Below, in pieces: positions 3,796 through 29,577 of a DNA stretch of 31,432 nt. This DNA is from Anaerolineaceae bacterium (lineage in GTDB: Bacteria; Chloroflexota; Anaerolineae; Anaerolineales; Villigracilaceae): the NCBI GenBank assembly GCA_009885945.1, contig VFJR01000071.1, forward strand, positions 1 through 31,432. Reading direction: 5' to 3'. The first letter of the stretch is position 1. The number at the start of each line of letters is the position of its first letter. Both the position numbers and the translations under genes were made by a program. Under the pieces are notes generated by a model that saw only the letters and a program-made list of their open reading frames with translations, did not search any database and was not told where the DNA came from.

Positions 3796-3797
3796 AA

Positions 3798-5180: not shown

Positions 5181-5241
5181 TGTTTTTCTCCTGTAAAAAC
5201 GACTATCCCTAAAATATATCATAATTGCAAATTATCTTTAA

Positions 5242-6123: not shown

Positions 6124-6147
6124 ATTTTTTGGAAGGAATAATTTATT

Positions 6148-10034: not shown

Positions 10035-10940
10035 ATGGCAAAAGCCCGATTGTTAGTTGTGGAAGACGATATTGATATTGCGAATATGCTTAAGATCTAC
10101 TTCTCTGGATTAGAATTTGATGTAGATGTAGCAAATCGCGGGATGGATGCTTTGGAAAAGACAAAGCATGTGATTCCTCATTTAATGGTGTTGGATATTA
10201 TGCTGCCTGATATTGACGGCTATGAAGTATGCCGTCAGTTGCGTATGAATACCCGCACTAGCCATATTCCTGTGATTTTTCTTACCCAAAAGGATGAACG
10301 CAGTGATAAGTTACAGGGTTTGGAATTAGGCGCTGATGACTATATTACAAAACCCTTTGATATTGAGGAATTAAAATTGCGCGTGACGGGTGCTATTCGC
10401 CGCGCTGAGCGTGAGAGTCTTACTGACCCGCGTTCTGGTTTACCTGCTGGGCGTTTGATTGAAGAGCAGCTGCGCCGCATTATTCGTGAGACAAATTGGG
10501 CAATGTTAGATTTGCGCTTAAATTACTTTGATGCGTTCAAAGATGTTTATGGCTTTGTCGCTGGTGATGATGTTTTACGTTTTGCTACTATGATATTAAG
10601 TGAAGTGGTAGATGAACTAGGCACGAACAAGGATTTTATTGGGCACCCAGGCGGTGATAATTTTGTAATCATTAGTACTCCTGAAGCTGCAATTACAATT
10701 CGCCAACGCCTTAAGGATCGCTTTGCGAATGAAGTGCAAACGCACTATAATTTTATCGACCGACAACAGGGATTTATCCAGGCTCCAAGAGCTGATGGGG
10801 GGGTAGATAAAGTTCCCTTTATGACCCTTTCAATTGGATTGGTATCACCGACTCAGCATTCTTTTGCTGATATTCGCGAAATTACTGAGTTAGCGGCAGA
10901 AGCCAGACGGCAGGATACACCTGCGGCTTCTATTGCCTGA
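10035..10940 (+). CDS. Response regulator: REC receiver plus GGDEF-like domain with degenerate active site GGDNF (predicted catalytically inactive diguanylate cyclase)
   Basis: REC: 'LLVVEDD', phospho-acceptor 'MVLDIMLP', 'YITKPF'. GGDEF-like: 'RSGLPAGRL', 'YGFVAGDDVLR', 'IGHPGGDNFVIIS' (GGDNF codons at 10650-10664). The I-site RxxD is replaced by TNKD. Strong SD TAAGGAGG 6 nt upstream. Confidence 0.8.
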   Translation: MAKARLLVVEDDIDIANMLKIYFSGLEFDVDVANRGMDALEKTKHVIPHLMVLDIMLPDIDGYEVCRQLRMNTRTSHIPVIFLTQKDERSDKLQGLELGADDYITKPFDIEELKLRVTGAIRRAERESLTDPRSGLPAGRLIEEQLRRIIRETNWAMLDLRLNYFDAFKDVYGFVAGDDVLRFATMILSEVVDELGTNKDFIGHPGGDNFVIISTPEAAITIRQRLKDRFANEVQTHYNFIDRQQGFIQAPRADGGVDKVPFMTLSIGLVSPTQHSFADIREITELAAEARRQDTPAASIA

Positions 10941-13900: not shown

Positions 13901-16900
13901 TTAATCAGCCTTGATGATCCATCCAATGGTTTACGCCCGGATATGGCGACCATTTCTTCGCTCGAAGCGTTTGCAGCGCAAGCAACATTAGTGATCACTA
14001 ATGTTGCTCGAGCAAGCGATTTAAAAAATAAGGTAGATGCATTAACCGCAGGCCTGCAGCGTCAACAAAAACTATTAAGCGTTACGCAAAATGATGTTCC
14101 GATTTTGTTACGCAAGGATTTAGAACAAACTATTTCGGTACATAGCCTTGAGAGGCGTGCTCAGCGCGTCCGCGCAGGATTGCTTATTACGGAAAGTGTC
14201 AGCCGTCAACTGGATGCAAGTTCAGCGCTGATGGCGCTTGCCCGCGAAGTTCTTACCCAGTTAAACATGTCCGCGTCTATCGTAGCTGAAAGTGGGGCAG
14301 AGGGACCACGCCTTCTTCACATCCTAGGCAGTGTGCCCAAATCCACAAACGTAGACGCATTGTTTGGTCAACGCAATCCATTACGGAGTTGTTTGCAATC
14401 TGGTGAGCCTTTATTAGTAGCAACGCTTGAAGAAAATGAAGAATGGCGTGATGCGCCATTGTTAACATCTCTGCGCGCAAAAGCTTTTATTTGCCTTCCC
14501 GTCATGGTGGAAAATGTTCCAGTTGCTGCCATGCTTGCCGTCAGCCCTGAACCGCTCACTGCATTTACAGATGAAGACCGTCAAGTTTATTACCAAATTT
14601 CTCGTCAAACATCTGTTATTCTGCAGAATATTTCCCTGCTTAATGAAACTCGCAGACGTTTGCAAGAAGTGAATCTTCTGTTGGAGTTCAGTCAACATCT
14701 TAGCGGGTTAAGCCCGGAAGAAATTTTACGTTCTCTGCTTGACAGTGCCCGCCGTGTATTACATTCTGCTCACGCTGGGAATGTTCTTTTATGGGATTTT
14801 CAATCTGATCTTCTTGTTTCACGCGCTGTTTCTGGATATGCAGATAATGAAAGTTTGACTCGAATTACGTACCGTTCTGGTGAAGCTTTGCCAGGTTCTG
14901 TATATGCATCTCGCAAACCACGCAAAGTGGATGAAATTAATTTTTCCAGAGATTACAATATTTCTTCAGAGAATTTACTTCTCTATCGTCAGGCAACCGG
15001 CGGGCGCATTCCCGTATCCAGTTTGCTCGTTCCTATTATTTCTGGCGATCGAAATCTTGGTTTATTAGTTCTGGATAATTTTAATGCTACAGGCGCATTT
15101 AAGGTAGAAGATGAAACTTTACTTCTTTCTTTGACACAGCAGGTTGCGCTATCGCTCGAAAACGTTCGATTAGTACTGGCAACCCAAGAACGCGCAGGTC
15201 AATTGCAGGCATTAAACGATGTTGCCGCCTCACTTACTTCAAATTTACGTAATGATCAATTGGTTAAATCATTGCTAGATCAGCTTGCTCCGGTAATTCC
15301 ATTTGATACCGCTACATTATTGGTTCGCGAAAAAGACCGCCTTAAGGTAATGGATGTGCGCGGGTTTGAAGATAATGATCAACGCCTAGGCCTCAGTTTG
15401 GCAGTGGCGGATAGCGCTATTTTTAACGAAATGAGTCGCAAGGGACAGCCTGTTGTAGTGAGCGATGTGCGTGAGGACCCACGTTTTCCGCGGGTAGATG
15501 CTCCTCGTCTGTCATGGCTTGGCATTCCTATGATTTCAAAAGGCGAATTAGTAGGTGTGATTACGCTGGAAAAGGCGCAGGTACGTTTCTATAATAAAGA
15601 ACAGGCGCAAGTCGCTGCAACATTTGCTAGTCAGGCTGCTGTAGCGTTGGAAAATGCCACTCTTTATGAAGACAGTTTAAGTCGCGCAGCAGAACTTGAC
15701 CAACGTTCCCAGCGTTTAATGGTATTGAATCGTTTCTCGGCTTCTCTTGGCGGTTTGTTGGATGTTGATCAGATACTACAATTAACTGCTCAGGAATTAT
15801 TACAGGCTTTGACAAATGTCAAACGTATTTCAATAATTACGTTTGAAGGCGAAAAAGCAATTTGGAAATTGGCATCTCCTCGCACTAATATGAAACTGCC
15901 GCGACCCCTTCCTCATGCCCCAATTTTTGATCGTTTACGTAGTTCTATGGGACTTTTCACCTCAGATAATATTGCTAATGAACCTGATCTAATGCCTTTG
16001 AAAGATATGCTGGGCCAAGACAATGCTTCTCTAATGATTGTTCCTCTCGGGGTTGCATCCAAGTTAACCGGTTTGCTATTTGCTTACACACCAGGCCAAT
16101 ATCGCTTCACTTCCACTGAAGTGGACCTAGCCCGTACTATGGTCACGCAAGCTTCGATCACGTTAGAAAATGCCCGTTTATACGAATCAAGTGTTCGTAC
16201 GGCAGAACGATTCGCTGCATTAAACGAAACTAGCTCGCAGATCAGTGCAAACCTTAATGCTGAGGAAATTTATCAAGCTGTGCATAAAGCGGCAAAACGT
16301 GTTATGCCAGTAGAATCATTTGTGATCAGTTTGTTGGATGAAGATACAAATGAAATTATCGGTGCATATTTAATAGATCATGATCAGCGTTCTCCAGCTA
16401 CGCGTGTTCCTAGATCGCAAGGCCTTACCGGTAAAATTCTTGAGAGTGGCCAACCTTTGTTAATAAGCGGAGATGAAGTAAAAGCAGCTGGTGGAATTCA
16501 ATATGGGGATGCTCCCAAATCGCCATTATCTATTATTGCTGTGCCAATGACCTTGGGAGGAAAGACCTTGGGGATGCTTTCTGCACAGAGCTATGAACCA
16601 AATATATATACTGATGATGATGTGCAAATTCTGGGTACTCTTGCAAATCAGACTATTGTTGCACTTCAAAACAGCAAACTTTTAATAGAAACTCAAACAC
16701 TAGCCGCAGAGCAAGAACGCCGTGTGGTTGAACGTACTGCACAATTACAACATGAGCAACAAAATACAGAAACATTGTTGCGCATTCTCACAGAAGTATC
16801 TTCAAGTCTTGATCTTGACCGTGCTTTGAATCGCACGCTTTCCTTACTTAATGATGCCATCGGCGCTGAACAGGGCACAATTATGCTTCTGCACGCCGAA

Positions 16901-18397
16901 GACAATCTTTTGCATTATCGTGCTGGCTATGGATACCTTTCCGAACGAGCAGATGGAGTTAATCGCACCCTTACATTAAAGGTGGGGGAAGGCTTAGCTG
17001 GATGGGTTGTACAAAACCGTGAAGCAACATTAGTCGATGATTTACATGAAGATAGTCGCTGGACACGATCTCCTAGCTCGTCACAAGATCACCGCAGCGC
17101 TTTAATTACCCCCATGTTGGTAAGTGAAGACGTTATTGGCGTTTTAATGGTTTTTCACCGTGAAGTCAGTTTCTTTAGCCCTGAAATGCTCAATTTGGTA
17201 AAGGCAATTGCAAGTCAGGTAGCTGTAGCAATAAATAATGCGCATTTATATGAATTAATTCGTGATCAAGCAGAACGTCTTGGTGTAATGCTCCGCAAGG
17301 AACAAGAGGAAGCCAGCCGTTCTCAAGCTATTCTTGAAGCTGTTGCCGATGGCGTTTTGGTAACAGGCGCAGATAACCGAATTACATTTGTTAACTACTC
17401 CATTGAACGTATCCTTGGGTTAAAAGTTGAACAAATCCTTGGGCAATCATTGGATGTGTTTGGCGGATTATTCGGCAAGACAGCTAGTGATTGGATGGAA
17501 ACGATTCGCCTTTGGTCAGAAGCGCCCGCATCCTATCAAACGGGTGATTCCTATGCGGAACAGATCGAACTTGAAAATGGGCATATAGCGTTGGTCCATC
17601 TGGCGCCTGTTATTTTACAAAACGATTTCCTTGGCACTGTTTCCATCTTTCGTGATATTACTCATGAAGTTGAGGTGGATCGTCTGAAGTCCGAATTTGT
17701 AGCAACGGTTAGCCATGAATTACGTACCCCTATGACAGCCATTAAGGGCTATGTCGAAATCTTGCTAATGGGTGCGGCTGGTGCTATTGGCGAAAACCAA
17801 GCACACTTCTTATCTATAGTAAAGAATAATATCGAACGACTTAATTCTTTAGTGGATGACTTGCTTGACATATCTCGCATCGAATCAGGTCGTGTCACTC
17901 TTACGCCGCAACCATTAGAAATGCGCGAAGTGGCAGAGGATGTAATTGCCGAGCTTTTGCGCCGTTCTCAAGAAGAGAAAAAACCAATGGCAGTATCGCT
18001 CGATGCTGAAAAGAATCTCCCGCCAGTTGTTGGTGATGTTGGACGGGTACGTCAAATACTCGGAAACCTGGTGGACAACGCCTATCATTACACCCCAGAG
18101 AATGGCACTATCCATGTTAATATTTACACAACAAACGGAAATGGCGAAAAACAGCTGCGCGTGGATGTGCAAGACAATGGTGTTGGCATTGCAGTAGAAG
18201 ACCAAGAGCGCATCTTCGATCGCTTTTATCGTGGTGAACACCCTCTTGTATTGGCTACCCCTGGAACAGGATTGGGACTCTCCATTGTCCGCCAACTTGT
18301 GGAAATGCATAATGGAAAACTTTGGATGAATAGCTCAGGCGTAGCTGGTGAAGGAAGTATCTTCTCCTTCACATTGCCAGTCTATAAAAATCAATGA
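10958..18397 (+). CDS. Giant (2479 aa) membrane-anchored sensor histidine kinase: N-terminal TM, PAS, about 11 tandem GAF domains, PAS, HisKA, HATPase_c
   Basis: TM 'GVGLGIWLIIAGLALVLLVWLVLWLL'. At least 11 repeated GAF C-terminal blocks (e.g. AALENATLYEDS, ITLENARLYESS, VAINNAHLYELI, ALQNSKLLIETQ, SLENVRLVLATQ). H-box 'EFVATVSHELRTPMTAIKGY'. N-box 'GNLVDNAYHYTPENG'. G1 'DNGVGIAVED'. G2 'GTGLGLSIVRQLVEMHNGKLW'. Single uninterrupted ORF. Confidence 0.85.
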   Translation: MLAGVGLGIWLIIAGLALVLLVWLVLWLLPGEKTAKVSEAPSYLPDTANSIDAVLIVEPGGRVNYMNSLARHWFDMAENDEPDIERLTRRVRPADQFLDVCVMPGQKRVTIGGRLMEVTSYEVPGTSPLILVTLRAMDLGSALIGGTSDSSTSILKVVKDFSQAVSLSLSLMHTLQAVLENISRLTSSDILELKLWDTQSDSLIPYRFDDPNSPARVIVRASVTQFGEFTSQLLTTRQPVFIASTEARSNTAPRNAEIKSIHSYLGIPLIVGDKLVGTLEAGQTSGGSFGQHDLDLLLLVSGQAASALRNAGRYEEEEKRSLELSGLANLTQAFSSIQDVRDLFASLIESISLLFNTDIIGFLLFDEDKSTLEGQIPFRGIPAHIVEIFRSSIPSGSSAEQVLNSRNSIYTLDASKDESWRLLGFTNIAIAASLRDCALIPLVSSSRVVGYFLLAHHRGGTSAFTKDESRLIDIVADQVAAIVDNALLVQHARIRSQRSDSLRRIASLSASSATLNEVLTFSIQELANLFQAEAGAVFLLNSKSGELTLEKNSAFGVDENTKEAFKVIYIDQPQYRQTVSGSQRSFVSGRLSTDRRVSPPYQQLAGVLHMESVLLVPLVARDKSIGELMLGNRRSDYFTTYDLQIVSTAAGLLATAIENSNLLKQTDDSLRQKVDQLSSASVTAREISASLEYDHLLQIIYEEALKISHATCGSVIFFKFNENDEIPHITHSIGCFNSKVVTPFELAAIKRGSAIEMPDFFSQIDYSAPHESVHSALLVPIVHHGKTTGLIQLHSSQAAFFKSMISESVQSLALQSGIALENARQYNDERLHVEVLRRRAETLVDLSNVSYSLNLEEPLEGSLLSIAHGISKATSFQVVLISIFESETGMLRRVTGVGIPQDILNELLSRKQPYSSVQSLLRPEFKIGRTYYIPADQTPIVPSDVHMVTLQLSSDQKTSNSWYSEDFLLIPLEDGQGNPIGLISLDDPSNGLRPDMATISSLEAFAAQATLVITNVARASDLKNKVDALTAGLQRQQKLLSVTQNDVPILLRKDLEQTISVHSLERRAQRVRAGLLITESVSRQLDASSALMALAREVLTQLNMSASIVAESGAEGPRLLHILGSVPKSTNVDALFGQRNPLRSCLQSGEPLLVATLEENEEWRDAPLLTSLRAKAFICLPVMVENVPVAAMLAVSPEPLTAFTDEDRQVYYQISRQTSVILQNISLLNETRRRLQEVNLLLEFSQHLSGLSPEEILRSLLDSARRVLHSAHAGNVLLWDFQSDLLVSRAVSGYADNESLTRITYRSGEALPGSVYASRKPRKVDEINFSRDYNISSENLLLYRQATGGRIPVSSLLVPIISGDRNLGLLVLDNFNATGAFKVEDETLLLSLTQQVALSLENVRLVLATQERAGQLQALNDVAASLTSNLRNDQLVKSLLDQLAPVIPFDTATLLVREKDRLKVMDVRGFEDNDQRLGLSLAVADSAIFNEMSRKGQPVVVSDVREDPRFPRVDAPRLSWLGIPMISKGELVGVITLEKAQVRFYNKEQAQVAATFASQAAVALENATLYEDSLSRAAELDQRSQRLMVLNRFSASLGGLLDVDQILQLTAQELLQALTNVKRISIITFEGEKAIWKLASPRTNMKLPRPLPHAPIFDRLRSSMGLFTSDNIANEPDLMPLKDMLGQDNASLMIVPLGVASKLTGLLFAYTPGQYRFTSTEVDLARTMVTQASITLENARLYESSVRTAERFAALNETSSQISANLNAEEIYQAVHKAAKRVMPVESFVISLLDEDTNEIIGAYLIDHDQRSPATRVPRSQGLTGKILESGQPLLISGDEVKAAGGIQYGDAPKSPLSIIAVPMTLGGKTLGMLSAQSYEPNIYTDDDVQILGTLANQTIVALQNSKLLIETQTLAAEQERRVVERTAQLQHEQQNTETLLRILTEVSSSLDLDRALNRTLSLLNDAIGAEQGTIMLLHAEDNLLHYRAGYGYLSERADGVNRTLTLKVGEGLAGWVVQNREATLVDDLHEDSRWTRSPSSSQDHRSALITPMLVSEDVIGVLMVFHREVSFFSPEMLNLVKAIASQVAVAINNAHLYELIRDQAERLGVMLRKEQEEASRSQAILEAVADGVLVTGADNRITFVNYSIERILGLKVEQILGQSLDVFGGLFGKTASDWMETIRLWSEAPASYQTGDSYAEQIELENGHIALVHLAPVILQNDFLGTVSIFRDITHEVEVDRLKSEFVATVSHELRTPMTAIKGYVEILLMGAAGAIGENQAHFLSIVKNNIERLNSLVDDLLDISRIESGRVTLTPQPLEMREVAEDVIAELLRRSQEEKKPMAVSLDAEKNLPPVVGDVGRVRQILGNLVDNAYHYTPENGTIHVNIYTTNGNGEKQLRVDVQDNGVGIAVEDQERIFDRFYRGEHPLVLATPGTGLGLSIVRQLVEMHNGKLWMNSSGVAGEGSIFSFTLPVYKNQ

Positions 18398-18405
18398 GGA
18401 ATTGA

Positions 18406-18780
18406 ATGGCAAAAATTTTAATAGCTGAAGATGAACCAGACATTCGTGACCTAGTGGCATTTACACTTCGATTTGCAGGACATGAAGTAGTCGCAACCTC
18501 CAATGGGGAGGATGCGTTACACTCAGCTCCCAATGTAAAACCAGATTTAATTCTTATGGATGTGCGTATGCCAAAGATGACTGGATACGAGGCTTGCCGA
18601 GCCATGAAAGCAGACCCTCAGCTAAGAGACATTCCCGTTGTATTTCTCTCTGCTAAAGGGCAAGAGAGCGAAATTCAAATAGGCATGGAAGCAGGCGCCG
18701 AAGAATATTTATTAAAACCATTTGCCCCCGATCAATTGACCGAGCGCATAAGATCCATCCTTGCTAAATACGGAAAATAA
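18406..18780 (+). CDS. Stand-alone CheY-like response-regulator receiver
   Basis: 'ILIAEDEPDIRDL', phospho-acceptor 'LILMDVRMPKMTGYE', 'YLLKPF'. 8 nt after the HK stop; SD TGAGGA. Confidence 0.85.
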   Translation: MAKILIAEDEPDIRDLVAFTLRFAGHEVVATSNGEDALHSAPNVKPDLILMDVRMPKMTGYEACRAMKADPQLRDIPVVFLSAKGQESEIQIGMEAGAEEYLLKPFAPDQLTERIRSILAKYGK

Positions 18781-19592: not shown

Positions 19593-19607
19593 TATAACGC
19601 GACATCT

Positions 19608-19708
19608 AATTGAACGGGGAGCCTGCCCAAGAGGCTGAGAGGAGCGTATACAACGCTCGACCCGCACTACCTGATCTGGTTAATACCAGCGGAGGGATTT
19701 TCTCGTTT
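19608..19708 (+). ncRNA. TPP (thiamine pyrophosphate, THI-box) riboswitch aptamer
   Basis: ACGGGGAGCCTGCCCAAGAGGCTGAGAGGAGCG...CGCTCGACCCGCACTACCTGATCTGGTTAATACCAGCGGAGGGA. This matches the conserved CUGAGA and ACCUGAUCUGGnUAAUnCCAGCGnAGGGA blocks and the P2/P3 helices of RF00059-type elements (from memory of the consensus). Confidence 0.85.
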
Positions 19709-19711
19709 TCT

Positions 19712-19741
19712 AAAACATCCTCTGCTTGAGGATGTTTTTTT
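19712..19741 (+). terminator. Riboswitch expression-platform intrinsic terminator: AAAACATCCTC-tgctt-GAGGATGTTTT plus TTTTTT
   Basis: 11-bp perfect stem, 5-nt loop, U-tract, read directly. About 30 nt upstream of the thiN ATG. Implies transcription-attenuation (OFF) control. Confidence 0.65.
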
Positions 19742-19770: not shown

Positions 19771-20400
19771 ATGCATCGTATACTGATCTTTGCCAATGGG
19801 GAACTGCCCAGCCTCGAAAAAGCCCGTACGCTTATCCGTGCAGGGGACTATATTATCGCGGTGGATGGGGGCATACGTCATATCCTTGCTTTGAAGCTTA
19901 TCCCCGCCGTTATTATTGGCGACCTCGACTCATTGCCTTCAGACTTTCAGCTTTCAACCTTCAGCGGAGAACTGATCCGATACCCTCGAGACAAAAATGA
20001 AACTGACCTTGAGCTTGCTATTCAACATACTCTTACATTAAACCCTGAGAAAATAATAATTATTGCTGCGCTTGGAGGTCGCCTCGATCAAACTCTGGCT
20101 AATATTTCTTTACTTGCAGACCAGCAACTCTCAGGTTTTGACATCCGATTAAACGATGGGGTGGAGGAAATTTTCATTTGCCGAGCTCAAGCCCAAGTTA
20201 TAGGAATAAGCGGCGATATTATTTCGTTAATTCCCTGGGGCAACCCAGTGACAGGCATCCAGACTACGAATCTAAAATGGGCGCTCAATAAAGAAACGCT
20301 GTTCCCTGAAAAAACACGCGGTATTAGCAATGAAATGACCGCAGATGAAGCGACTATTTCAATTGAATCAGGCTTGCTGGTAATTGTTCGCCGCTATTAA
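19771..20400 (+). CDS. thiN: Thiamine pyrophosphokinase (thiamine diphosphokinase, TPK)
   Basis: 'ILIFANGELPS', 'VIIGDLDSL' and 'IIAALGGRLDQTLANI' match the TPK catalytic-domain motifs (GDxDS, GGRxDH/Q). C-terminal thiamin-binding-like domain. Directly downstream of the TPP riboswitch. Confidence 0.75.
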   Translation: MHRILIFANGELPSLEKARTLIRAGDYIIAVDGGIRHILALKLIPAVIIGDLDSLPSDFQLSTFSGELIRYPRDKNETDLELAIQHTLTLNPEKIIIIAALGGRLDQTLANISLLADQQLSGFDIRLNDGVEEIFICRAQAQVIGISGDIISLIPWGNPVTGIQTTNLKWALNKETLFPEKTRGISNEMTADEATISIESGLLVIVRRY

Positions 20401-20426: not shown

Positions 20427-20873
20427 ATGAAAATCATTAAGAAGAATTTTGTTGGCGAAGTCACATGGCAATATGATGGTTCTATACTTCAACGCAACGA
20501 AAACTCAGTGACAATTGAAGCATTTTTCAATCGCGATGATATGCCTTTTATGAATATTGTGTTGAAACGTAATGACCGTTTTGTGGAAACTTTTTACTCG
20601 GACAAATGGTATAACATTTTTGCGATTTATGATCGAGATGACGCCAAATTTAAAGGTTGGTATTGCAATATTACAAAGCCAGCGATTATCCAAATGGATT
20701 TAATAACTTATGAAGACCTTGCACTGGATTTATGGGTTGATGCTGCTGGTGCACAAACTATCTTGGATGAAGAAGAATTACTAGATTTAAAGTTGAGTGA
20801 TGAGCTAAACCAAAAAATTTATCAGGCAATGGAAGAATTGAAGCTTGAGATTAAAAACAAAAAACTCCCATGA
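20427..20873 (+). CDS. DUF402 / Ntdp-like nucleoside tri-/diphosphate phosphatase family protein
   Basis: 'KWYNIFAIYDRDDAKFKGWYCNITKPAIIQMDLITYEDLALDLWVDAAGAQTILDEEEL' parallels S. aureus Ntdp '[24 protein letters not shown]...[26 protein letters not shown]' (recalled, not searched). SD TAAGG upstream. Co-operonic with thiN. Confidence 0.6.
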   Translation: MKIIKKNFVGEVTWQYDGSILQRNENSVTIEAFFNRDDMPFMNIVLKRNDRFVETFYSDKWYNIFAIYDRDDAKFKGWYCNITKPAIIQMDLITYEDLALDLWVDAAGAQTILDEEELLDLKLSDELNQKIYQAMEELKLEIKNKKLP

Positions 20874-20904: not shown

Positions 20905-21066
20905 TTAACTAAAAGCTTGGACAAGAGTATCGCCGTAAGACCAAAGTCCAACAGCAGATAAACAGCAACAGCAAAGAATTACAACCACAGCGACAACAAT
21001 CATAATTGTTCTATTGTTGTTTTTCTTGGGCTCAGTTCCGCCAGACATTTCAGGTGTTTCATTCAT
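20905..21066 (-). CDS. Small (53 aa) predicted single-pass membrane peptide with a CCCC cysteine cluster in the TM segment (not in the ORF track)
   Basis: Reverse-strand translation MNETPEMSGGTEPKKNNNRTIMIVVAVVVILCCCCLSAVGLWSYGDTLVQAFS. Excellent SD GGAGAG 5 nt upstream of the ATG. 35 nt downstream of the DUF4126 gene, same strand. Confidence 0.4.
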   Translation of the reverse strand: MNETPEMSGGTEPKKNNNRTIMIVVAVVVILCCCCLSAVGLWSYGDTLVQAFS

Positions 21067-21101: not shown

Positions 21102-21668
21102 TCAGGCTGTTTGCTGTTTGCGTCGTGACCACCACCAAAGGAAAATAATGGTGAACATAATAAGGATAACGCCCATAACAATAGGGACAAATATCGAAAG
21201 AATAGACACCGCCGTTGCCGTAACATCCTCTGCGATAGAAACGGGGGTATTGCCAGCCCCGGCAGTGGTTGCGCTGACCATTGGGCGTATCACGGCAGAT
21301 TTGGTAACGTGCACACCTCCAGCGATCAAAAGCCCGCACGCAAGCGCAATGAGCGGATTAACATCTGTGATGACTTTTGCGCTGGCGGCAAATGCGATTG
21401 CGCCTGCTGCTGGGCGGATGAAAGTTTGGATTAGGTCATTAATGTGATTGACTGCGGGGAATTTATCTGCGAGCGTTTCTATGATCACCAATACACACAG
21501 CAGAATCAAAATCCATGCATTTGCTAGTAAACTCCACGGTTCGTTGAGCTGAAATGTGTTTGGTAAATAATGTGCGATAGCGCCAACTACCAGCAATGGA
21601 ATGTAAGCATTCACCCCAGCGCTGGCAGATAAACCGAATGCCGAAAAAACTCCTAGTAAAAGTTCCAT
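21102..21668 (-). CDS. DUF4126-like polytopic membrane protein
   Basis: 'MELLLGVFSAFGLSASAGVNAYIPLLVVGAIAHYLP' followed by further TM helices. SD AAGGAG 8 nt upstream. Family assignment from memory. Confidence 0.45.
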   Translation of the reverse strand: MELLLGVFSAFGLSASAGVNAYIPLLVVGAIAHYLPNTFQLNEPWSLLANAWILILLCVLVIIETLADKFPAVNHINDLIQTFIRPAAGAIAFAASAKVITDVNPLIALACGLLIAGGVHVTKSAVIRPMVSATTAGAGNTPVSIAEDVTATAVSILSIFVPIVMGVILIMFTIIFLWWWSRRKQQTA

Positions 21669-21694: not shown

Positions 21695-22531
21695 TTAACC
21701 AGTAATTCCAGGGAAGCCGCCCCAGGTACCCGTCAGCTGTAAGCGGAATAGGTCAATGCTAATGATCAGAATCAAGCCGAGGGTTAGTCCTGATGCGGCG
21801 GCTAGCCAAAGCTGGCGAGGGTGATCAAATGTATTTTCCTGACGCATGATCATGATCCATGCCATTGAGAACACAGCGCTCAACAGGACGAGTATACCGA
21901 ATATACTTAAGTAAGCGATTAAATATAGCATGATTGTACTATCTGCTAACACTGCTAAATTCATTGCGCTGACAATGCCAATGATGATACCTAATATTTT
22001 CCAATCAAGCGCCTCAATTTGTTCAGAGTTGCGCCAAATGGTTTGATTGACGGCGGGGTAGAGAATGGCTGCAAGCGCGATGCCCATGCCGCTGCCAGTG
22101 AAAATACGTAATATGCTGTTGGGAATATACAAGTTGGGGATATTGTCCAGCGCGCCTTGCGATGTTTGTTTTAGCAGATATAGATATGAGTTACTTCCAT
22201 CTATCCCAAACGCCAGAAAAAAAAGAAATAACAGAACAAGGATACTGCGTTTTGGAAATTTACTTCTTTTGCCGCTCATCCATCCCAGAACTATAAATGA
22301 AATTGCCGCAGCGTTGAATTCGCCAGTGCAGCGCGCGCATAATGGAAGTTGACGTTCTCCAATTTGAAAGGATCGCGCATCAATGCGATGACAAATTGCA
22401 TATCCAACAGCATCTAATTTTCCCAGCGCGCCTTCGGGAGAAATATAAAACCACACGCTAATTGCTGCTAGCATAGCGATTATCACGAACCAGCGCAAAG
22501 GCTTTATATAAGGAGTATTTTCTGTTTGCAT
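21695..22531 (-). CDS. DUF2085-family membrane protein (Cys-rich CH...C..C motif)
   Basis: 'YAICHRIDARSFQIGERQLPLCARCTGEF' matches the conserved DUF2085 CHQ..RSF....P.CARCTG block; 5-6 TM helices. Start ambiguous: ATG at 22531 (used here) or TTG at 22555 (ORF track). Overlaps the upstream gene's end, which is operon-typical. Confidence 0.55.
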   Translation of the reverse strand: MQTENTPYIKPLRWFVIIAMLAAISVWFYISPEGALGKLDAVGYAICHRIDARSFQIGERQLPLCARCTGEFNAAAISFIVLGWMSGKRSKFPKRSILVLLFLFFLAFGIDGSNSYLYLLKQTSQGALDNIPNLYIPNSILRIFTGSGMGIALAAILYPAVNQTIWRNSEQIEALDWKILGIIIGIVSAMNLAVLADSTIMLYLIAYLSIFGILVLLSAVFSMAWIMIMRQENTFDHPRQLWLAAASGLTLGLILIISIDLFRLQLTGTWGGFPGITG

Positions 22532-22544
22532 TGTAACGTTTGCC

Positions 22545-22937
22545 TCAGCGCTCAAAATATTCTTTCATCGGTTTGAAGTAAAAATCGTCCCAGCCTTTTT
22601 TGTATCCGTCTGCTTGTTGATCGGGGATGCTGGTATGGATAAGGGTTACTTTTGTCTGCCCATTTTTTTCTTCAAATAATATTTCTACAAGTGAGTCGTT
22701 ATCATCTTCAGAAAATTCACTGGTGCGCCAAGTTTGCAGGATGCGCTGATTTTCAGTTAATTCTAAAAATGTACCCCAAATATAACCATCCCATGCAGTA
22801 AATTCACCGCGCGCCCGCCCGTCCACTTTTGCGGGGCTGCCCGTCATGGCGCTATGCCCTGTGGTGGAAAGCCATGATGAATAAATTTTCTCGGCGCTTG
22901 TCTTGAATGTTTCAATAAGTGTAAATTCGTTTTTCAT
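22545..22937 (-). CDS. SRPBCC-superfamily protein, AHSA1 (activator of Hsp90 ATPase homolog 1-like) domain
   Basis: 130 aa. The 'TFKTSAEKIYSSWLST...GEFTAWDGYIWGTFLELTENQRILQTWRTSEF...TKVTLIHTSIP' pattern is typical of PF08327-like proteins. Confidence 0.55.
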   Translation of the reverse strand: MKNEFTLIETFKTSAEKIYSSWLSTTGHSAMTGSPAKVDGRARGEFTAWDGYIWGTFLELTENQRILQTWRTSEFSEDDNDSLVEILFEEKNGQTKVTLIHTSIPDQQADGYKKGWDDFYFKPMKEYFER

Positions 22938-22954: not shown

Positions 22955-23881
22955 TTATAGCGCTTTTATTTTTTTCTTCTCGGTCATCTCGCTTGCAATT
23001 TGTGCGGCGAGACGCGCGTTGTTTAATAACAAAGCTAGGTTTGCCTTTAATGATTTTCCCGCAGATAATGCACTGATGCGGCTTAATAAAAATGGAGTCA
23101 GCGCCTGCCCGTGGATTCCCTGTTTCATTGCCTCAGCAGATGCTTGAGCGATCAGCGGCTCCATCTCAGACTGGGGGATGGATTCTGTTTCAGGGAGCGG
23201 ATTCGCCACGAGGACTGCGCTCTGTAATCCCATTTCCCAATGTGTGCGCGCAAAATCAGCGACCTCTTTTGCCGAGTCTAATTGCACGCTGACCTTCAAT
23301 CCGCTTTCGCGTGTGTAGAATGCAGGAAATTCATTGGTTTGATAGCCCACCACAGGCACACCCATTGTTTCCAGATATTCGAGCGTAGCAGGCAGGTCTA
23401 AAATGGATTTTGCTCCTGCACAGACAACGATCATGGGGGTCTCTGCCAAAGCGCGCAGGTCAGTTGAAATATCAAACGCAGATTCTTTATGTACGCCACC
23501 AATTCCGCCAGTGGCAAATACTTTAATACCAGCCAATTGCGCGGCGAGCATTGTGCCAGCTACTGTTGTGCCGCCATTCCTCTTTTTAAGAATAGCAGTT
23601 GCGAAATCACGGTGACTCACTTTCAGCGGCGAATCTGTTTCAGAAAGCTGAATCAAATCTTCGTCAGAGAGACCGATGCGCAGTTTTCCATCCAACAATG
23701 CAATGGTGGCGGGGATCGCTTCTGCCTTGCGGATTTGTGTTTCCATGTCGCGCGCTAACGCTAGGTTTTGCGGGTATGGCAATCCGTGTGTAATCACAGT
23801 AGATTCTAGCGCGACAACAGGAGTTCCAAAATTTAATGCGCGTGTGATCTCAGTTGTAATATGTACGTGTGGATTTTTCAA
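22955..23881 (-). CDS. psuG: Pseudouridine-5'-phosphate glycosidase
   Basis: 'PVVALESTVITHGLPYPQN', 'GGTTVAGTMLAAQLAGIKVFATGGIGGVH', 'MIVVCAGAKSILD' are PsuG/IndA-family hallmarks. TTG start with good SD AGGAAAGGAAAA. No in-frame ATG upstream before a stop. Confidence 0.85.
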   Translation of the reverse strand: MKNPHVHITTEITRALNFGTPVVALESTVITHGLPYPQNLALARDMETQIRKAEAIPATIALLDGKLRIGLSDEDLIQLSETDSPLKVSHRDFATAILKKRNGGTTVAGTMLAAQLAGIKVFATGGIGGVHKESAFDISTDLRALAETPMIVVCAGAKSILDLPATLEYLETMGVPVVGYQTNEFPAFYTRESGLKVSVQLDSAKEVADFARTHWEMGLQSAVLVANPLPETESIPQSEMEPLIAQASAEAMKQGIHGQALTPFLLSRISALSAGKSLKANLALLLNNARLAAQIASEMTEKKKIKAL

Positions 23882-23918: not shown

Positions 23919-25532
23919 TTATTTTAACCAATGCATTTCCAGCAAGTTGATATCGCGGATTACTTTTTCAATATTATCCAGCGCGCGCTTATCCTCTAGG
24001 CTGGGGTCTTCTATAAATTCAATGTCGAGCAATTCTTTGCCCGCCAGTAATTCTTTGCGAATGGCTTTTAGAATATCGAGCGCGATCGTATTGGGGCTTT
24101 TTTCTACCTGAACGACTTCTCCAAACTTACGCGCAAAATTATTGTATTCTTCAAAAAATACCGTTTCTGATTCTTTTGCTTTTTCAACATGGTCTTTTTT
24201 ATGAGAGGTATTTTTCGGCTGTTCGAATTTTTCAATAATAGCAGAATTAACCAGTTTGATAAATTCCTCGTTGGCTGTTTTGCCTTTTTTACGTTCGGCA
24301 TCGGTTTTTTTGCTGGCATTGTCACCAGCTTTTTTCCAAGCTTCTTGCAATTTGTCGAAGATTGGAGCAGGGGGGTGCTTCCATGTGCCGATGTCAATCC
24401 ATTCAAGTGAGATGCCAGTTTTGGCGGCTTTTTCTTTGAACTCACGGGAATAAAATTGCGATGTGATCATTGAGCGCGATGTGAATTTTGGCGCGTTCAC
24501 GGGTTTGCTGTCGCGAGGTATGGCTTTTTGCTGGCGGGTTAATTCATTGCGAATTTGTTCTACTGAATCTTGGTTGACCAGCGCCTGATCAATTTCCTTT
24601 TGCCCAATCGATGCCAAAATTTCCGCCAGGGTGTGCTTGCGAATTAAGTCTTCTAATTCGTTTTGAATTAAACGTAAAACAGTGGTGTTCCACGGGAATG
24701 CACTTTTTTCTTCTAGGGGTTCGGGGCGCACAATGGTTTGTTCATAGACAAGCGCTTTTACTGCTTCAGGGTCATATAGTAAAGCGGCATCGTCTGTATC
24801 ATCTGTTTCTTCTTGCCGCCGCAGAACGCGGAACATGATTTTGATGTCATGTGCTCCCAAAGGGATGCCGTCCTTTGTGCGCGAATTGACCGAAAGGTCT
24901 GTAAGGAATTGGTCGCTTAAGTTGATGACCGCATATTCGGCATCGCCAATTTCACGGATGCGCTCGAACCTGCTGATCTTCCAAGGTTTGCCGCGCGCGT
25001 GCATAATTTCGGGTGCACCGCTTATTTTTTCAAATAAGACCACGTTGCCAAGGTTTACCTGAACATGCCCAGGTCCGCCAATTTGAACAATGGTGGTCTC
25101 TTGATCCGATTCTGAAATTTCACCTTCAGTAATTTTGATAATGGATTGCCCATCGCCGTTCCATATTCTGCCGCCGTGTTCAAGGGCGTCTTCATCGTCA
25201 TAGCCGAACGCTACTTTGTCTAAAAAGGTAACGGCGATTTCTTCATCTTCCAATTCGTAGATGTCTTGTAAATATTTTGCGCAAACATTCTTTGCGATTC
25301 TATACGCTACATAAATAATCGGTGCGTACTTAAGGAAACTTAGCGCCGCCAAAATTAATCGCCATATATTTTCACTTACCCCAATGAAGGTTAAAATCAT
25401 TGTCAAGCCGCTCAGCGTAAACCAGACCGCAATGAAGAGGATCATGCGCCACTGTTTGCGAAAAGCAACACTTTGCGGGGTGAGTGCAAACATCATTTCC
25501 GTCATTCTTTCAAGCTGTAAAGAGCGATTCAT
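23919..25532 (-). CDS. Membrane-anchored, highly divergent SPFH/band-7-like protein (537 aa), second gene of a tandem SPFH pair
   Basis: N-terminal TM hairpin 'ILFIAVWFTLSGLTMILTFIGV...LILAALSFL'. Core 'TTIVQIGGPGHVQVNLGNVVLF...SDQFLTDLSVNSRTKDGIPLGAHDIKIMFRV' and 'GISLEWIDIGTWKHPPAPIFDKLQEAWKKA' resemble SPFH blocks. Lys/Glu-rich coiled-coil tail. 4-bp overlap (ATGA) with the upstream gene. Confidence 0.4.
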   Translation of the reverse strand: MNRSLQLERMTEMMFALTPQSVAFRKQWRMILFIAVWFTLSGLTMILTFIGVSENIWRLILAALSFLKYAPIIYVAYRIAKNVCAKYLQDIYELEDEEIAVTFLDKVAFGYDDEDALEHGGRIWNGDGQSIIKITEGEISESDQETTIVQIGGPGHVQVNLGNVVLFEKISGAPEIMHARGKPWKISRFERIREIGDAEYAVINLSDQFLTDLSVNSRTKDGIPLGAHDIKIMFRVLRRQEETDDTDDAALLYDPEAVKALVYEQTIVRPEPLEEKSAFPWNTTVLRLIQNELEDLIRKHTLAEILASIGQKEIDQALVNQDSVEQIRNELTRQQKAIPRDSKPVNAPKFTSRSMITSQFYSREFKEKAAKTGISLEWIDIGTWKHPPAPIFDKLQEAWKKAGDNASKKTDAERKKGKTANEEFIKLVNSAIIEKFEQPKNTSHKKDHVEKAKESETVFFEEYNNFARKFGEVVQVEKSPNTIALDILKAIRKELLAGKELLDIEFIEDPSLEDKRALDNIEKVIRDINLLEMHWLK

Positions 25533-26914
25533 GACTTGCCCTTCTCTTTGGCTTGTGACGCGGCGCGATTATTATCGAGTATCCATTTCCATACTTCTTG
25601 CATTTTTTGCAAGGTGGTTTCTAGTTCACGAGGGTCAATATTTTCGTTTACAACAGCTTCCTTAACAGGCTCAATGATCAGGTTTAGAGCAGTAAAAGGA
25701 TGTTTAGACGGGCTGACTCTGCCCGAATATTTTTGACTGGAAATTCGTGCAAAACGTTTACTGGCTTCTTCACGCCCATGGGCGTTGATCAGAGATTCCA
25801 TGTCTAAAATTATCTTTGCTTCTTTTTCTGCGTTGGTTTGCCATTCATTGCGCCAGTTTTGAATGATCTGTTCTTGCATGGCAGTCTCAAAAATAATGTC
25901 ATGGATGCGCACTTCAATGACCTCAAGCCCGCGCGTATCGAGCTGCTGAAATTCAATACTCTCATGCATCAACCCATTTGGCAGCCCTGTATCATCTAGC
26001 TCCACAACTCTTTCGTTTTTCAACCTTTTGTTGATCATATCTTCAATGGTTTGCAAGCCGCTCACATTGTTGTTGGTGGTGAACAGCTCAGCTAATTTAA
26101 ACTTGCGAACATACTCACGCCACAAATTGATCACTAAATAAGGTGGCAGTCCCTTCCAGTCCATTTTTTCCTGTGTGCTGGTGTTAATAATGTCGTTGGT
26201 GATTGCATTTCGCACAGCAGATTCATCATATCCATAGCCAGAGTACACGCCGCTTTCTGTAGGGTCAAGCAGAGATGTGGGGCGTTTGATCGAAAATTTT
26301 ATACTGATGGTGGGCGTCACTTCAAAACCATCACGCGATAATTCTGTAGTCGTTTCACGTTTATTTTGTGTTTCATCTGCAAGATCGCCCCATACTTCTT
26401 CGGGCAGTGGTCCAACATATTGCATTTGGTCGCGTAAATCAACACTGCCCGCAATGTATTCGTTGGGCTTCGTAAATTTGATGCCAGGTCCCGCCGCCCC
26501 TTTTATTTCTGCGTCTGTTCTTAAGACAACTGCGCTGGCAGTATCCAACACTATCACGCCCAAGCCGCGCTTTTTTTCTTCCCCCTCATGCCTAATTACA
26601 TCTCCGTTTTTTACAAAAAGAGCCTGCCCATTTTTGCCCACTTGAAAAGCCTGCACACGTTCATATACTTCTTTGCGATGTTTTGCGGTTTGCACAGGCA
26701 AAATAAACTGTGAGAAGAAATACGTAAATCCATTCAGCAGTAGAATGGAAAGTACAATATCCAATACCAGCAAAATTGCGCTGACAACCAAGTTAATAGG
26801 AATCCCTGCCAGCCAGGCGATTAAGTGCCAAACAACAGTAATTCCAATCACCACGCCTATTGGTGTTTGCAAGCCATTCATTAGGACGTCCATCACTCTG
26901 CGCATATTGAACAT
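25529..26914 (-). CDS. Membrane-anchored divergent SPFH/band-7 (stomatin/HflKC/flotillin-like) protein (461 aa), first gene of the tandem pair
   Basis: Two N-terminal TM helices. 'GLGVIVLDTASAVVLRTDAEIKGAAGPGIKFTKPNEYIAGSVDLRDQMQYVG' matches SPFH 'G.r.v..rlG.....gPGl.f..P.i.....vdlR.q'. 'GLEVIEVRIHDIIFETAMQEQIIQNWRNEWQTNAEKEAKI' matches the SPFH C-terminal 'GievvdV.i.di..p.ev..am......AEre..a'. Possibly leaderless: a TAGAAT box abuts the ATG. Confidence 0.45.
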   Translation of the reverse strand: MFNMRRVMDVLMNGLQTPIGVVIGITVVWHLIAWLAGIPINLVVSAILLVLDIVLSILLLNGFTYFFSQFILPVQTAKHRKEVYERVQAFQVGKNGQALFVKNGDVIRHEGEEKKRGLGVIVLDTASAVVLRTDAEIKGAAGPGIKFTKPNEYIAGSVDLRDQMQYVGPLPEEVWGDLADETQNKRETTTELSRDGFEVTPTISIKFSIKRPTSLLDPTESGVYSGYGYDESAVRNAITNDIINTSTQEKMDWKGLPPYLVINLWREYVRKFKLAELFTTNNNVSGLQTIEDMINKRLKNERVVELDDTGLPNGLMHESIEFQQLDTRGLEVIEVRIHDIIFETAMQEQIIQNWRNEWQTNAEKEAKIILDMESLINAHGREEASKRFARISSQKYSGRVSPSKHPFTALNLIIEPVKEAVVNENIDPRELETTLQKMQEVWKWILDNNRAASQAKEKGKS

Positions 26915-26970
26915 GATTCTATATCAAAATCGTGTAAAACACCAACAGCAAATACGGTTAAAATCCTTTT

Positions 26971-27627
26971 ATGCTAAAAGTCGAATTTCATTGCCATACC
27001 AACGCCTCAAAGGATTCTTTAACCAGTCCTGAGGATTTAATCAAAGCCGCGCGGAAAAAAGGCATTGACCGCCTGATCGTTACCGACCATAACTCGATTG
27101 CTGGCGCACAGGCGGCTCATTCTCTCGCCCCAGGCTTGATCATTGTTGGCGAGGAAATTTTAACTACCCGAGGCGAAATTCTAGCGGCGTTTGTGCACGA
27201 GGAAATCCCCGCGCGTCTTTCGCCTATGGAAACGATAAAAAGGCTAAAAGCTCAGGGTGCATTTATTAGCGTCTCGCACCCATTTGATGAATTACGAGAG
27301 GGCGGCTGGGAGCAGGATGACTTGCTAGAAATTATCCCTTTTGTAGATGCCATTGAAGTATATAACTCGCGTTGTATGTTCCCTTGGTTTAATAGCAGGG
27401 CAAAAGAATTCGCTGAAAAGCATAATATTGCAGGCACTGTTGGCTCAGACGCGCACGCCGCCTTTGAGCTGGGCAGGTCGCTGCTTTTGTTGGAGCAGTT
27501 TTCAAGCGCAGGCGAGATGCGTAAGGTCGTTCGGGCTGGAGTTCCGCGAGTAAGGTGGTCTCCGCCTTGGTTTCATCTAACATCGCGCTATGCATCTATT
27601 AAAAAGAAATTGTTGCGCTTGATATAA
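26971..27627 (+). CDS. PHP-domain (polymerase/histidinol-phosphatase-like) metal-dependent phosphoesterase
   Basis: 'VEFHCHTNASKDS', 'IVTDHNSIAG', 'ISVSHPFD', 'GSDAHAA' are the canonical PHP His/Asp metal-ligand motifs. Confidence 0.7.
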   Translation: MLKVEFHCHTNASKDSLTSPEDLIKAARKKGIDRLIVTDHNSIAGAQAAHSLAPGLIIVGEEILTTRGEILAAFVHEEIPARLSPMETIKRLKAQGAFISVSHPFDELREGGWEQDDLLEIIPFVDAIEVYNSRCMFPWFNSRAKEFAEKHNIAGTVGSDAHAAFELGRSLLLLEQFSSAGEMRKVVRAGVPRVRWSPPWFHLTSRYASIKKKLLRLI

Positions 27628-27635
27628 TTCAACTT

Positions 27636-28817
27636 ATGAAAAATTCAATGCGATACTTTATTTCCATTTTTGCGGCTGTCGTTATCTTTGTAATTACATA
27701 TTTTAATAAAGCAGAATTGCCGCCTGTACTTTTTTCTGGTTTTGGTTCAGAAACAGTGCGCGCTGAAGTGACCCAAATCCTAGACGAGGGTGAAATTAAA
27801 CTTGGAGAACATGTTCAGCCGTATCAAATATTGGAAGTAAAAGCATTGGAAGGGGACTATGCCGGAGTTCCTATGCAGGTGGATTTTGGAAAACGGCAGG
27901 TTCGTTCGGACGATTATGCACTTGCGCTTGGCGATAAGATTATTATTACCATCAGCAAAACTCCTGATAATGTGGTCAATGCTTATTTTGTAGATTATGT
28001 GCGCGTTAATCCAATCTTATGGTTGACCGCATTATTTGCAATTTCTATTTTATGGATCAGCGGTTGGAAGGGTTTGCGCGCGCTTTTAAGCATGGCATTT
28101 AGTTTGTATATGATTATTGGTTATATTATTCCGCATATTTTGGCAGGCGAAGACCCGTTGCGCGTCAGTATTATTGGCTCGGCAATTTTGCTGGGCATTA
28201 CTTTATATCTCACGTATGGCTGGACGCTTAAAACACATGCGGCGGTATTGAGCATGATCCTTGTGCTTTTGCTGACGGGCGCGCTTTCCTATTTCTTTGT
28301 GATTCTTACCCGTTTGAATGGACTTGGTGATGAAAATACCATGTTCCTTATTCAAATGCTGGATACACCGATTAATTTGCGCGGGCTGTTGCTGGGCGGT
28401 ATGATCATTGGCGCTTTGGGTGTCTTGGATGATCTGGTAACGACTCAAGCCTCTGCTGTGTTTGAACTTCACCATGCCAATCCGACTCTTGGCTTTGGTA
28501 GACTCTACTCAAGCGCCATGCGCATCGGGCAGGACCATGTGGCGGCTACTGTCAATACTTTAGTGTTAGCCTACGCTGGAGCGGCTCTGCCAATGTTGTT
28601 GATGTTTTCATTGGGGCGTGGTAATTATGGTTACCTCATTAATTTTTCGGTAGTGGCAGAGGAAGTAGTGCGTACTTTGGTTGGATCACTTGGCTTGATT
28701 GCAGCTGTGCCGCTTACTACGGTCATTGCAATTTGGTTCGTTCAAAGCGCTGATTCGCTTGGGTGGCTGAGACAGTTTCTTGGTCCAGAGGGAAGCGGCG
28801 AAGGGCATATTCATTAA
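27636..28817 (+). CDS. YibE/F-family polytopic membrane protein
   Basis: N-terminal TM plus soluble domain plus about 8 TM helices. 'GLLLGGMIIGALGVLDDLVTTQASAV' and 'TVNTLVLAYAGAALPMLLMF' are typical of the YibE/F (PF07907) organisation as I recall it. Confidence 0.55.
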   Translation: MKNSMRYFISIFAAVVIFVITYFNKAELPPVLFSGFGSETVRAEVTQILDEGEIKLGEHVQPYQILEVKALEGDYAGVPMQVDFGKRQVRSDDYALALGDKIIITISKTPDNVVNAYFVDYVRVNPILWLTALFAISILWISGWKGLRALLSMAFSLYMIIGYIIPHILAGEDPLRVSIIGSAILLGITLYLTYGWTLKTHAAVLSMILVLLLTGALSYFFVILTRLNGLGDENTMFLIQMLDTPINLRGLLLGGMIIGALGVLDDLVTTQASAVFELHHANPTLGFGRLYSSAMRIGQDHVAATVNTLVLAYAGAALPMLLMFSLGRGNYGYLINFSVVAEEVVRTLVGSLGLIAAVPLTTVIAIWFVQSADSLGWLRQFLGPEGSGEGHIH

Positions 28818-28827
28818 GGAGAGATGT

Positions 28828-29577
28828 ATGAGGATTGGTATCATCGGCGCGTTGGATGAGGAACTATTGCCTATTCGAGAATTTACCCAGCATCTTGAAA
28901 GAAAGCACATTCGTAATCGAATTTATTGGCATGGCGATGTTTATGGGCATGAGCTTTATTTGACGCGTTGTGATGTTGGCAAAGTGAATGCCGCAGTTGC
29001 CGCGCAACAAATCATTGATCATTTTTCAGTGGATCTTATGTTTAATATCGGTAGTTCAGGTGCACTCTCGCCTGAACTTGAGGTAGGTGATCTTGTAATT
29101 GCTACTGAAGCCATTCAACATGATTTTGATCTATCCAGCTGGGGCTTACAGCCTGGTGAAATATTGTTTGATGCAGTGACAGAGAATGGACAATTGAAGT
29201 TTCGCTCACAGCAAATATTTACATGCGATAAAAAAATCTCAAAGTTGATAATGGATGTTGCGCACAAGCTTAAATTTACAGAGGTGCTGGGGCATTCCCC
29301 TAAAATTATTTCTGGCAGGATCTTAAGCGGCGATCAATTTATTGGACAGCAAACCAAGGCAAATGAGTTGTGGAATATTTTACAGGGTCTATGTACTGAT
29401 ATGGAAGCTGCGGGAATTGCACACGCCTGTACTGTGAACGATGTGCCTTTTGTGTGTGTACGTGCAATTTCTGATAAGGCAGACCACTCTGCTACTGTAG
29501 CTTTTACAGAATTTTTACAAGCGGCGGTAGTGAATTACGGAAAGCTATTTGAAAAAGTGATCATGCAGTTGGAGTGA
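28828..29577 (+). CDS. mtnN: 5'-methylthioadenosine/S-adenosylhomocysteine nucleosidase (PNP_UDP_1 fold)
   Basis: 'MRIGIIGALDEEL', 'CDVGKVNAAVAAQQIIDHFSVDLMFNIGSSGAL', 'GDLVIATEAIQHDFDL', 'TDMEAAGIAHAC'. The true start is ATG 28828 with strong SD AAGGAGAG; the ORF-track TTG start at 28780 overlaps the YibE/F gene. Confidence 0.8.
   Translation: MRIGIIGALDEELLPIREFTQHLERKHIRNRIYWHGDVYGHELYLTRCDVGKVNAAVAAQQIIDHFSVDLMFNIGSSGALSPELEVGDLVIATEAIQHDFDLSSWGLQPGEILFDAVTENGQLKFRSQQIFTCDKKISKLIMDVAHKLKFTEVLGHSPKIISGRILSGDQFIGQQTKANELWNILQGLCTDMEAAGIAHACTVNDVPFVCVRAISDKADHSATVAFTEFLQAAVVNYGKLFEKVIMQLE

Follow-up and report, generated by a model that had tools for sequence, protein, structure and literature searches.

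A tandem pair of divergent SPFH-superfamily membrane proteins encoded with psuG in Chloroflexota

Although proteins of the SPFH superfamily (stomatin, prohibitin and flotillin as well as HflK/C) occur in all domains of life, the clients and roles of most bacterial members are unclear. The operon partners known in bacteria are NfeD proteins and the known functional partner is FtsH. An NfeD or NfeD-like protein (YuaF/YqeZ/YbbJ) defines the SPFH1, SPFH2 and SPFH5 operon types, and HflK/C face the periplasm and enclose the periplasmic domain of FtsH (PDB 7vhp). Here we describe two overlapping genes, A and B, on a contig of 31,432 nucleotides from Anaerolineaceae bacterium (Chloroflexota; GenBank assembly GCA_009885945.1, contig VFJR01000071.1), referred to throughout as the window. 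A and B are distant, fast-evolving paralogues within the SPFH superfamily, and their pairing, their overlap and the gene module that they head are conserved. The two genes and their junction are as follows.

25529-26914, minus strand: gene A, encoding an SPFH/Band_7 membrane protein; open reading frame of 461 amino acids.
23919-25532, minus strand: gene B, encoding a 537-amino-acid SPFH-fold membrane protein, a distant paralogue of A.
25529-25532, minus strand: ATGA overlap of the A stop codon and the B start codon, read from the sequence; putative site of translational coupling.

Two minus-strand open reading frames of 461 and 537 amino acids that overlap by 4 bp had been reported in a preliminary description made from the DNA letters, and both were recovered at exactly these positions. 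The overlap is read directly in the junction sequence GTCATGAAT, where the TGA stop of A and the ATG of B share 4 bp, and it recurs in related loci. Translation of A probably starts at the second ATG (26905, Met4) and not at the first (26914), since its homologues and an upstream promoter-like box align with the second; the protein would then be 458 amino acids long. The base composition of the cluster is unremarkable and resembles that of its surroundings. A defense-system or prophage origin was considered and rejected, as there was no PADLOC match and no deviation in base composition.

Protein A matches the Pfam profile Band_7 (PF01145) with 32.3 bits against a gathering score of 23.6 (E = 1.3e-7). 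The match pairs residues 127-365 with positions 8-170 of the 176-position profile, that is, 239 residues with 163 profile positions, so that about 75 residues are inserted. The preliminary description had proposed that both proteins are SPFH-like and had named a lack of SPFH matches to either one, in profile or structure searches, as the outcome that would speak against this; the Band_7 match of A and the results for B given below are clearly contrary to that outcome. When A and B were scanned against NCBIfam at E <= 1, no SPFH-family model was returned, the HflK/HflC models included, and neither protein matched flotillin-specific models of Pfam or NCBIfam. A phmmer search of PDB sequences gave little for A and nothing for B. 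With a profile of the A family, the sole PDB matches were to HflC at E ~0.1, over the last core strand and the following helix (HflC 196-262 aligned with A 331-397). The PDB profile match of the B family, to TMEM175, was dismissed as an artefact of the transmembrane region.

The assignment of B required more distant relatives. For B itself, searches of Pfam, NCBIfam, PADLOC and PDB sequences yielded nothing, and a BLASTP comparison of the two proteins was not significant. Some A orthologues are named "SPFH domain-containing protein" at NCBI; all B orthologues are named "hypothetical". These results would fit a pair in which only A is an SPFH protein and B is an unrelated membrane accessory, comparable to the NfeD/YuaF-type partners. 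Full-length homologues numbered 289 hits for A and 352 for B, and hhalign of the narrow orthologue alignments gave a probability of 47% with E = 2e-4, which is suggestive only. When the B family served as query in an exhaustive profile search, 672 clusters (50% identity) were collected, of which 214 lay below E 1e-30. The addition of these distant relatives made the comparison decisive: the diverse B profile aligned to the A family with a probability of 97.5% (E = 8.3e-12, 255 columns), pairing B 110-415 with A 93-370. Band_7 is matched by 19 of 86 distant B relatives on their own (best E 4.6e-8), and a hidden Markov model of the A family retrieves B from among the open reading frames of the window (E = 1.4e-5). 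Core-only hits, at a root-mean-square deviation of 2.2-3.6 Å, are also among the matches that speak against an unrelated B. The enlarged alignment also brought out the invariants of the B family: GGPG, R218/D221/G222 and a strand with the sequence WIDIGTW. The SPFH alpha/beta fold is thus found in the pair as a whole, the claim that both proteins are SPFH-like holds, and we regard an unrelated B as scarcely credible. A second SPFH pair had been suspected at 2173-5222, where the genes proved to encode a Peptidase_MA_2 protein and a family-5 solute-binding protein; the window therefore holds A/B as its one SPFH pair.

The protein regions map to the window as listed below (AF2, AlphaFold2 model).

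26702-26860, minus strand: two-helix hydrophobic hairpin of A, residues ~19-71, from hydropathy and AF2 helices 18-36 and 42-71.
25886-26638, minus strand: beta-hairpin and SPFH core of A, residues ~93-343, from Pfam, hhalign, AF2 secondary structure and the HflC alignment.
25727-25885, minus strand: 53-residue helix of A (CC1-like wall helix), residues 344-396, from AF2 and the HflC alignment.
25302-25442, minus strand: two-helix hydrophobic hairpin of B, residues ~31-77, from hydropathy and AF2 helices 19-51 and 55-92.
24378-25205, minus strand: beta-hairpin and SPFH core of B, residues ~110-385, with GGPG at 152-155, R218/D221/G222 and WIDIGTW at 378-384.
24225-24368, minus strand: 48-residue helix of B, residues 389-436, from AF2.

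The core motifs that had been proposed are present as GPGIKFTKPNEYIAGSVDLR and RGLEVIEVRIHDI in A and as TGISLEWIDIGTW in B, with IINLRDQ in the B-family consensus. Both proteins carry a beta-hairpin that is specific to these families (A ~92-107, B ~128-141; mutually aligned by hhalign), and in both a short helix sits between the hydrophobic hairpin and the beta-hairpin. Beyond residue 396 the model of A continues as further helices to the C-terminus; the region of B beyond its 48-residue helix is helical, charged and modelled at lower confidence. The C-terminal halves of A and B are thus helical and charged, in line with the charged coiled-coil tail described earlier, and hydropathy confines the hydrophobic segments to the N-terminus, as had also been proposed. 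Across both families hydrophobicity is limited to the first 65-80 residues, and the hairpin loop consists of 0-3 residues without K/R and is flanked by K/R on both sides. The two-helix hairpin and this K/R distribution predict that the N-terminus and the SPFH/coiled-coil portion are cytoplasmic, as in flotillin, stomatin, QmcA and YqiK. Both proteins are longer than the solved chains of HflC, QmcA and prohibitin, but the statement that they are far longer than known relatives does not apply to SPFH proteins generally. Bacterial flotillins, for example FloT and YqiK, have about 500-550 residues.

A scan of species-representative genomes yielded 80 loci. All named loci belong to metagenome-assembled genomes of Anaerolineales/Chloroflexota, except for one labelled Herpetosiphon sp. 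Wherever a locus has sequence there, A lies directly upstream of B. Of 86 loci, 73 have the 4-bp overlap (ATGA or GTGA) and another 7 overlap by 1 bp, and overlaps are kept in pairs that are 27-39% identical to that of the window (including loci L087, L088, L090, L091 and L092). This recurrence, like the hundreds of full-length homologues of each protein, goes well beyond chance. In L006 (3035-6488), L011 (1085-4079) and ~20 other related loci, extra SPFH paralogues adjoin the module, giving up to four SPFH genes per cluster. One type is a same-strand pair of 530 and 399 amino acids, both above the Band_7 gathering score; these loci also have a TPR-like protein of 171 amino acids, and the paralogues and the TPR-like gene lie between the PHP gene introduced below and A. 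The other type is a divergent pair of ~590 and 400-500 amino acids.

The pair is accompanied by the following genes and by a short region from which A and the PHP gene diverge.

22955-23881, minus strand: psuG, pseudouridine-5'-phosphate glycosidase family (Pfam Indigoidine_A, E 4.2e-123, full profile).
22545-22937, minus strand: small AHSA1/SRPBCC protein (Pfam, E 1.2e-17).
21695-22555, minus strand: DUF2085 protein (Pfam).
21102-21668, minus strand: DUF4126 protein (Pfam).
20905-21066, minus strand: 53-amino-acid open reading frame for a putative transmembrane peptide with CCCC, from a reading of small open reading frames.
26971-27627, plus strand: PHP-domain phosphoesterase, divergent from A (Pfam PHP and PHP_C).
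26906-26970, no strand assigned: putative shared divergent control region, from the sequence and an alignment of 15 loci.

The third gene of the operon, psuG, is conserved with the pair. It starts 37 nt past B in the window, and in essentially all of the 86 loci centred on B it comes directly after that gene, with a gap that is typically 4-30 bp and becomes a 4-bp overlap in L005. Viewed from psuG, 67 metagenomic loci extend far enough upstream, and 65 of them carry the pair. In the distant loci L087, L090 and L091 a psuK gene, which encodes a PfkB kinase, has been inserted between these two genes in the same orientation; psuK is absent from the cluster in the window. The AHSA1 gene comes next after psuG in about half of the related loci and is a frequent fourth gene. 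The gaps between the genes of the cluster showed no terminator-like site, and Rfam detected no RNA element within it.

The genes for DUF2085, DUF4126 and the 53-amino-acid peptide are co-directional and tightly spaced. The peptide, whose open reading frame starts 35 nt after DUF4126, would have a charged N-terminus and a single transmembrane helix with ILCCCCLSAV. All five downstream reading frames of the preliminary description (psuG, AHSA1, DUF2085, DUF4126 and the Cys-cluster peptide) are thus present on the same strand, and its term "membrane-protein operon" is apt for this window. It does not extend to other genomes: a tblastn search of 170 related loci found neither DUF2085 nor DUF4126 in any of them. 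These two genes, and probably the Cys-rich peptide as well, were added locally and are not conserved with the pair.

On the other side of A, the divergent PHP gene is its direct upstream neighbour in ~20 loci and lies 2-5 kb away in ~17 more; it also accompanies the distant pairs in L088-L090. Among NCBIfam models, those for CehA/McbA, RNase RNM and 3',5'-bisphosphate phosphatase come closest without reaching the cutoff, and its best PDB match is 3e0f. Across loci, identity is 55-80% for psuG and 65-83% for PHP, and 27-55% for A and B. The gene beyond PHP encodes a cold-shock domain protein in L088 (4322-4534) and L089 (4569-4781) and ribosomal protein L25/Ctc in L001 (6479-7147); these RNA-related genes fit loosely with a theme of RNA turnover. 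In the window, a gene of the PNP_UDP_1 nucleoside phosphorylase family (28780-29577, plus strand) follows a YibE/F membrane protein gene (27636-29577 region), and a DUF402 gene lies near the cluster (20427-20873, plus strand). Neither PNP_UDP_1 nor DUF402 was found beside the module in related loci, and their proximity here may be a coincidence.

PHP and A are separated by ~55 bp in the window and by 38-60 bp in 14 loci with the two genes adjacent. On the A side, a -10-like TAGAAT box (26916-26921, minus strand), preceded by TTTTGATA, stands 10 nt from Met4; on the PHP side, a TAAAAT box (26959-26964, plus strand) stands 6 nt ahead of the ATG. Both boxes face outward. Across the 15 aligned loci, TTnTGnTnTAnAAT is invariant on the A side, 8-11 nt before the start codon that is common to the A homologues, and ATTnTA, equivalent to TAnAAT, is invariant on the PHP side, 5-6 nt before the PHP ATG. 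These distances leave no space for a Shine-Dalgarno sequence, so the A and PHP transcripts look leaderless or nearly so and would start from back-to-back promoters. This sequence arrangement suggests that PHP may be co-regulated with the A-B-psuG operon. In most related loci an AATTCG...CGAATT palindrome, which may be an operator, lies between the boxes; the window lacks it. A sigma-70 scan of the intergenic gaps gave nothing convincing; the scan needs a -35 element and hence missed boxes of the -10-only kind.

We then considered what the pair might do. The N-terminal two-helix hairpins would anchor A and B in the cytoplasmic membrane, with the SPFH domain and the long coiled-coil helix facing the cytoplasm. 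Translation would be coupled by the conserved ATGA overlap of stop and start codons and so lead to roughly 1:1 production of A and B, which may alternate as subunits of a large ring- or cage-shaped assembly enclosing a patch of membrane. We infer alternation by analogy with the SPFH heteropairs solved to date (HflK/C, prohibitin 1/2, flotillin 1/2 and erlin 1/2), all of which alternate. A, B and psuG would form one operon, at times with psuK and often with AHSA1/SRPBCC, and this operon would use the ~55-bp divergent promoter region jointly with PHP. Taken together, a 1:1 alternating, cytoplasm-facing A/B membrane cage appears to us the probable arrangement.

The preliminary description had suggested a membrane microdomain or protease-regulatory complex and had proposed to look for an FtsH or NfeD-like partner nearby. 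Such a partner was sought and not found: neither FtsH nor NfeD is encoded in the window or in 11 annotated related contexts, and in a census of 14 loci, which covered 128 neighbouring open reading frames, neither belongs to the families that recur. The protease part of the suggestion thus receives no support from the surroundings of the pair, and the gene context indicates no protease client. A and B could still act as a regulator of the HflK/HflC type, which would enclose a membrane protease such as FtsH and govern the degradation of membrane proteins. They are a tandem paralogous SPFH pair as in hflK-hflC, and HflC provides the sole PDB sequence-profile matches of the A family. Nor is the missing adjacency to ftsH decisive, since hflKC of E. 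coli does not lie beside ftsH either and adjacency is no requirement in the HflK/C family. We nevertheless think this role quite unlikely: no SPFH-family NCBIfam model is matched, the hairpin predicts cytoplasmic SPFH domains whereas those of HflK/C are periplasmic, and proteases, Peptidase_M41/FtsH among them, do not recur in the contexts or in the census.

Several points weigh against the A/B cage and its linked module. Contact between A and B and the formation of a cage are argued from analogy and gene organisation, and the topology is derived from hydropathy and the positive-inside rule. The AF2 models have a mean predicted local distance difference test score of just 73-76 and a predicted template modelling score of 0.53-0.58, and their C-terminal parts are poorly modelled. 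The gene linkage has exceptions in both directions, as L092 contains the pair without psuG, and L098 and L138 contain psuG without the pair. A broader synteny also persists in Anaerolineales (4HBT, AA_kinase and FTHFS), so inheritance has a share in the conserved gene order, part of which could have arisen in this way and not by selection.

These last points favour another explanation, in which A/B form a generic flotillin-like microdomain scaffold to which psuG and PHP became attached by operon hitch-hiking, a functionally meaningless linkage passed down in one lineage. Among the named loci the linkage was seen in one lineage only, and the slow evolution of the enzymes PsuG and PHP beside the fast evolution of A and B suggests different selective regimes. 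However, the module persists amid unrelated flanks in L087, L088, L090 and L091, where A/B identity has fallen to 27-39%. Other observations also argue against mere hitch-hiking: the spacing between B and psuG is tight, down to an overlap, the insertion of psuK between these genes leaves the operon intact, and key positions of the PHP/A control region are invariant. We therefore consider hitch-hiking possible but not the likely explanation of the linkage.

The conserved partners raise the question of whether the A/B cage could serve as a dedicated membrane platform for RNA and nucleotide salvage that organises or regulates PHP, PsuK and PsuG, so that breakdown products of pseudouridine-containing RNA would be processed at the membrane. 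This reading draws on precedents that link SPFH proteins to RNA degradation and on the relatives of PHP (pAp phosphatases and RNase RNM/AM, matched below cutoff). In S. aureus, FloA promotes the oligomerisation and activity of RNase Y; in H. pylori, a flotillin promotes RNase J foci and floA adjoins rhpA. At present we rate the salvage platform as an unlikely role. Should it be true, it would be the first SPFH scaffold with defined metabolic, non-protease clients in one co-regulated module.

The largely unannotated A/B pair adds a second bacterial SPFH heteropair, in a predicted orientation opposite to that of HflK/C. B represents a family that domain libraries do not recognise and that is now placed in the SPFH fold. 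That genes for an SPFH scaffold are so tightly linked, in both directions, with pseudouridine catabolism and PHP is unreported and unexplained; a search of the literature for SPFH proteins with pseudouridine, or for psuG/psuK with membrane clusters, returned incidental co-mentions only and no paper that makes the link. The linkage to psuG, psuK and PHP is a testable lead to a client, which is usually lacking in the SPFH field. Even if it is hitch-hiking, annotation is improved for several hundred Chloroflexota protein clusters.

Three further loci of the window lie apart from the pair. A sensor histidine kinase of 2479 amino acids (10958-18397, plus strand) contains at least 10 GAF domains together with PAS, HisKA and HATPase_c, and is flanked by response-regulator genes at 10035-10940 (REC-GGDEF) and 18406-18780 (REC). 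A thiamin pyrophosphate riboswitch (19605-19714, plus strand; Rfam RF00059, 69 bits) immediately precedes a thiamin pyrophosphokinase gene (19771-20400), which is slightly unusual because this is not a biosynthesis or transport gene. At 5317-6687 (plus strand), a DUF4388 protein gene is followed by one for a small Ras/MglA-like GTPase (ATP_bind_1/Ras hits), an arrangement that resembles MglA/MglB-type polarity modules.

How does the module compare with described systems? In E. coli, psuK-psuG-psuT form the pseudouridine catabolic operon. The Chloroflexota module shares psuG and, in some relatives, an adjacent PfkB-type psuK in the same orientation. It differs from the E. coli operon in that it has no nucleoside transporter gene, is headed by two SPFH genes and has PHP as a divergent partner.

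Among SPFH proteins, the prohibitin 1/2 and Erlin 1/2 cages (9o9z, 9o9u) are eukaryotic, shorter and held by a single N-terminal anchor, and their identity to A/B is ~9-14%. QmcA-YbbJ and the archaeal stomatin PH1511-PH1510 (SPFH1) combine a homo-oligomer with an NfeD protein, whereas A/B are two paralogues without NfeD. Since NfeD partners define the SPFH1, SPFH2 and SPFH5 operon types and none recurs here, A/B fall outside all three. Flotillin-1/2 and the bacterial flotillins (FloT/YuaG, FloA and YqiK; SPFH2) have a hairpin anchor and a cytoplasmic SPFH domain, as predicted for A/B. Unlike them, A/B match no flotillin-specific model and have no NfeD-like partner such as YuaF, and overlapping pairs of paralogous genes are not known for bacterial flotillins.

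The E. coli proteins HflK and HflC (prokaryotic SPFH3; PDB 7vhp, 7vhq) resemble A/B in that they are encoded by an adjacent pair of paralogous SPFH genes. They have a single transmembrane segment and periplasmic domains, whereas a hairpin and cytoplasmic domains are predicted for A/B. The latter also differ from HflK/HflC in having no match to the HflK/HflC models of NCBIfam, no hflX or ftsH context, an extra N-terminal beta-hairpin, extra C-terminal helices and an operon that runs on into psuG. In predicted topology and in size, A/B are closest to flotillin, YqiK and QmcA, yet they are encoded as a heteropair like HflK/C.

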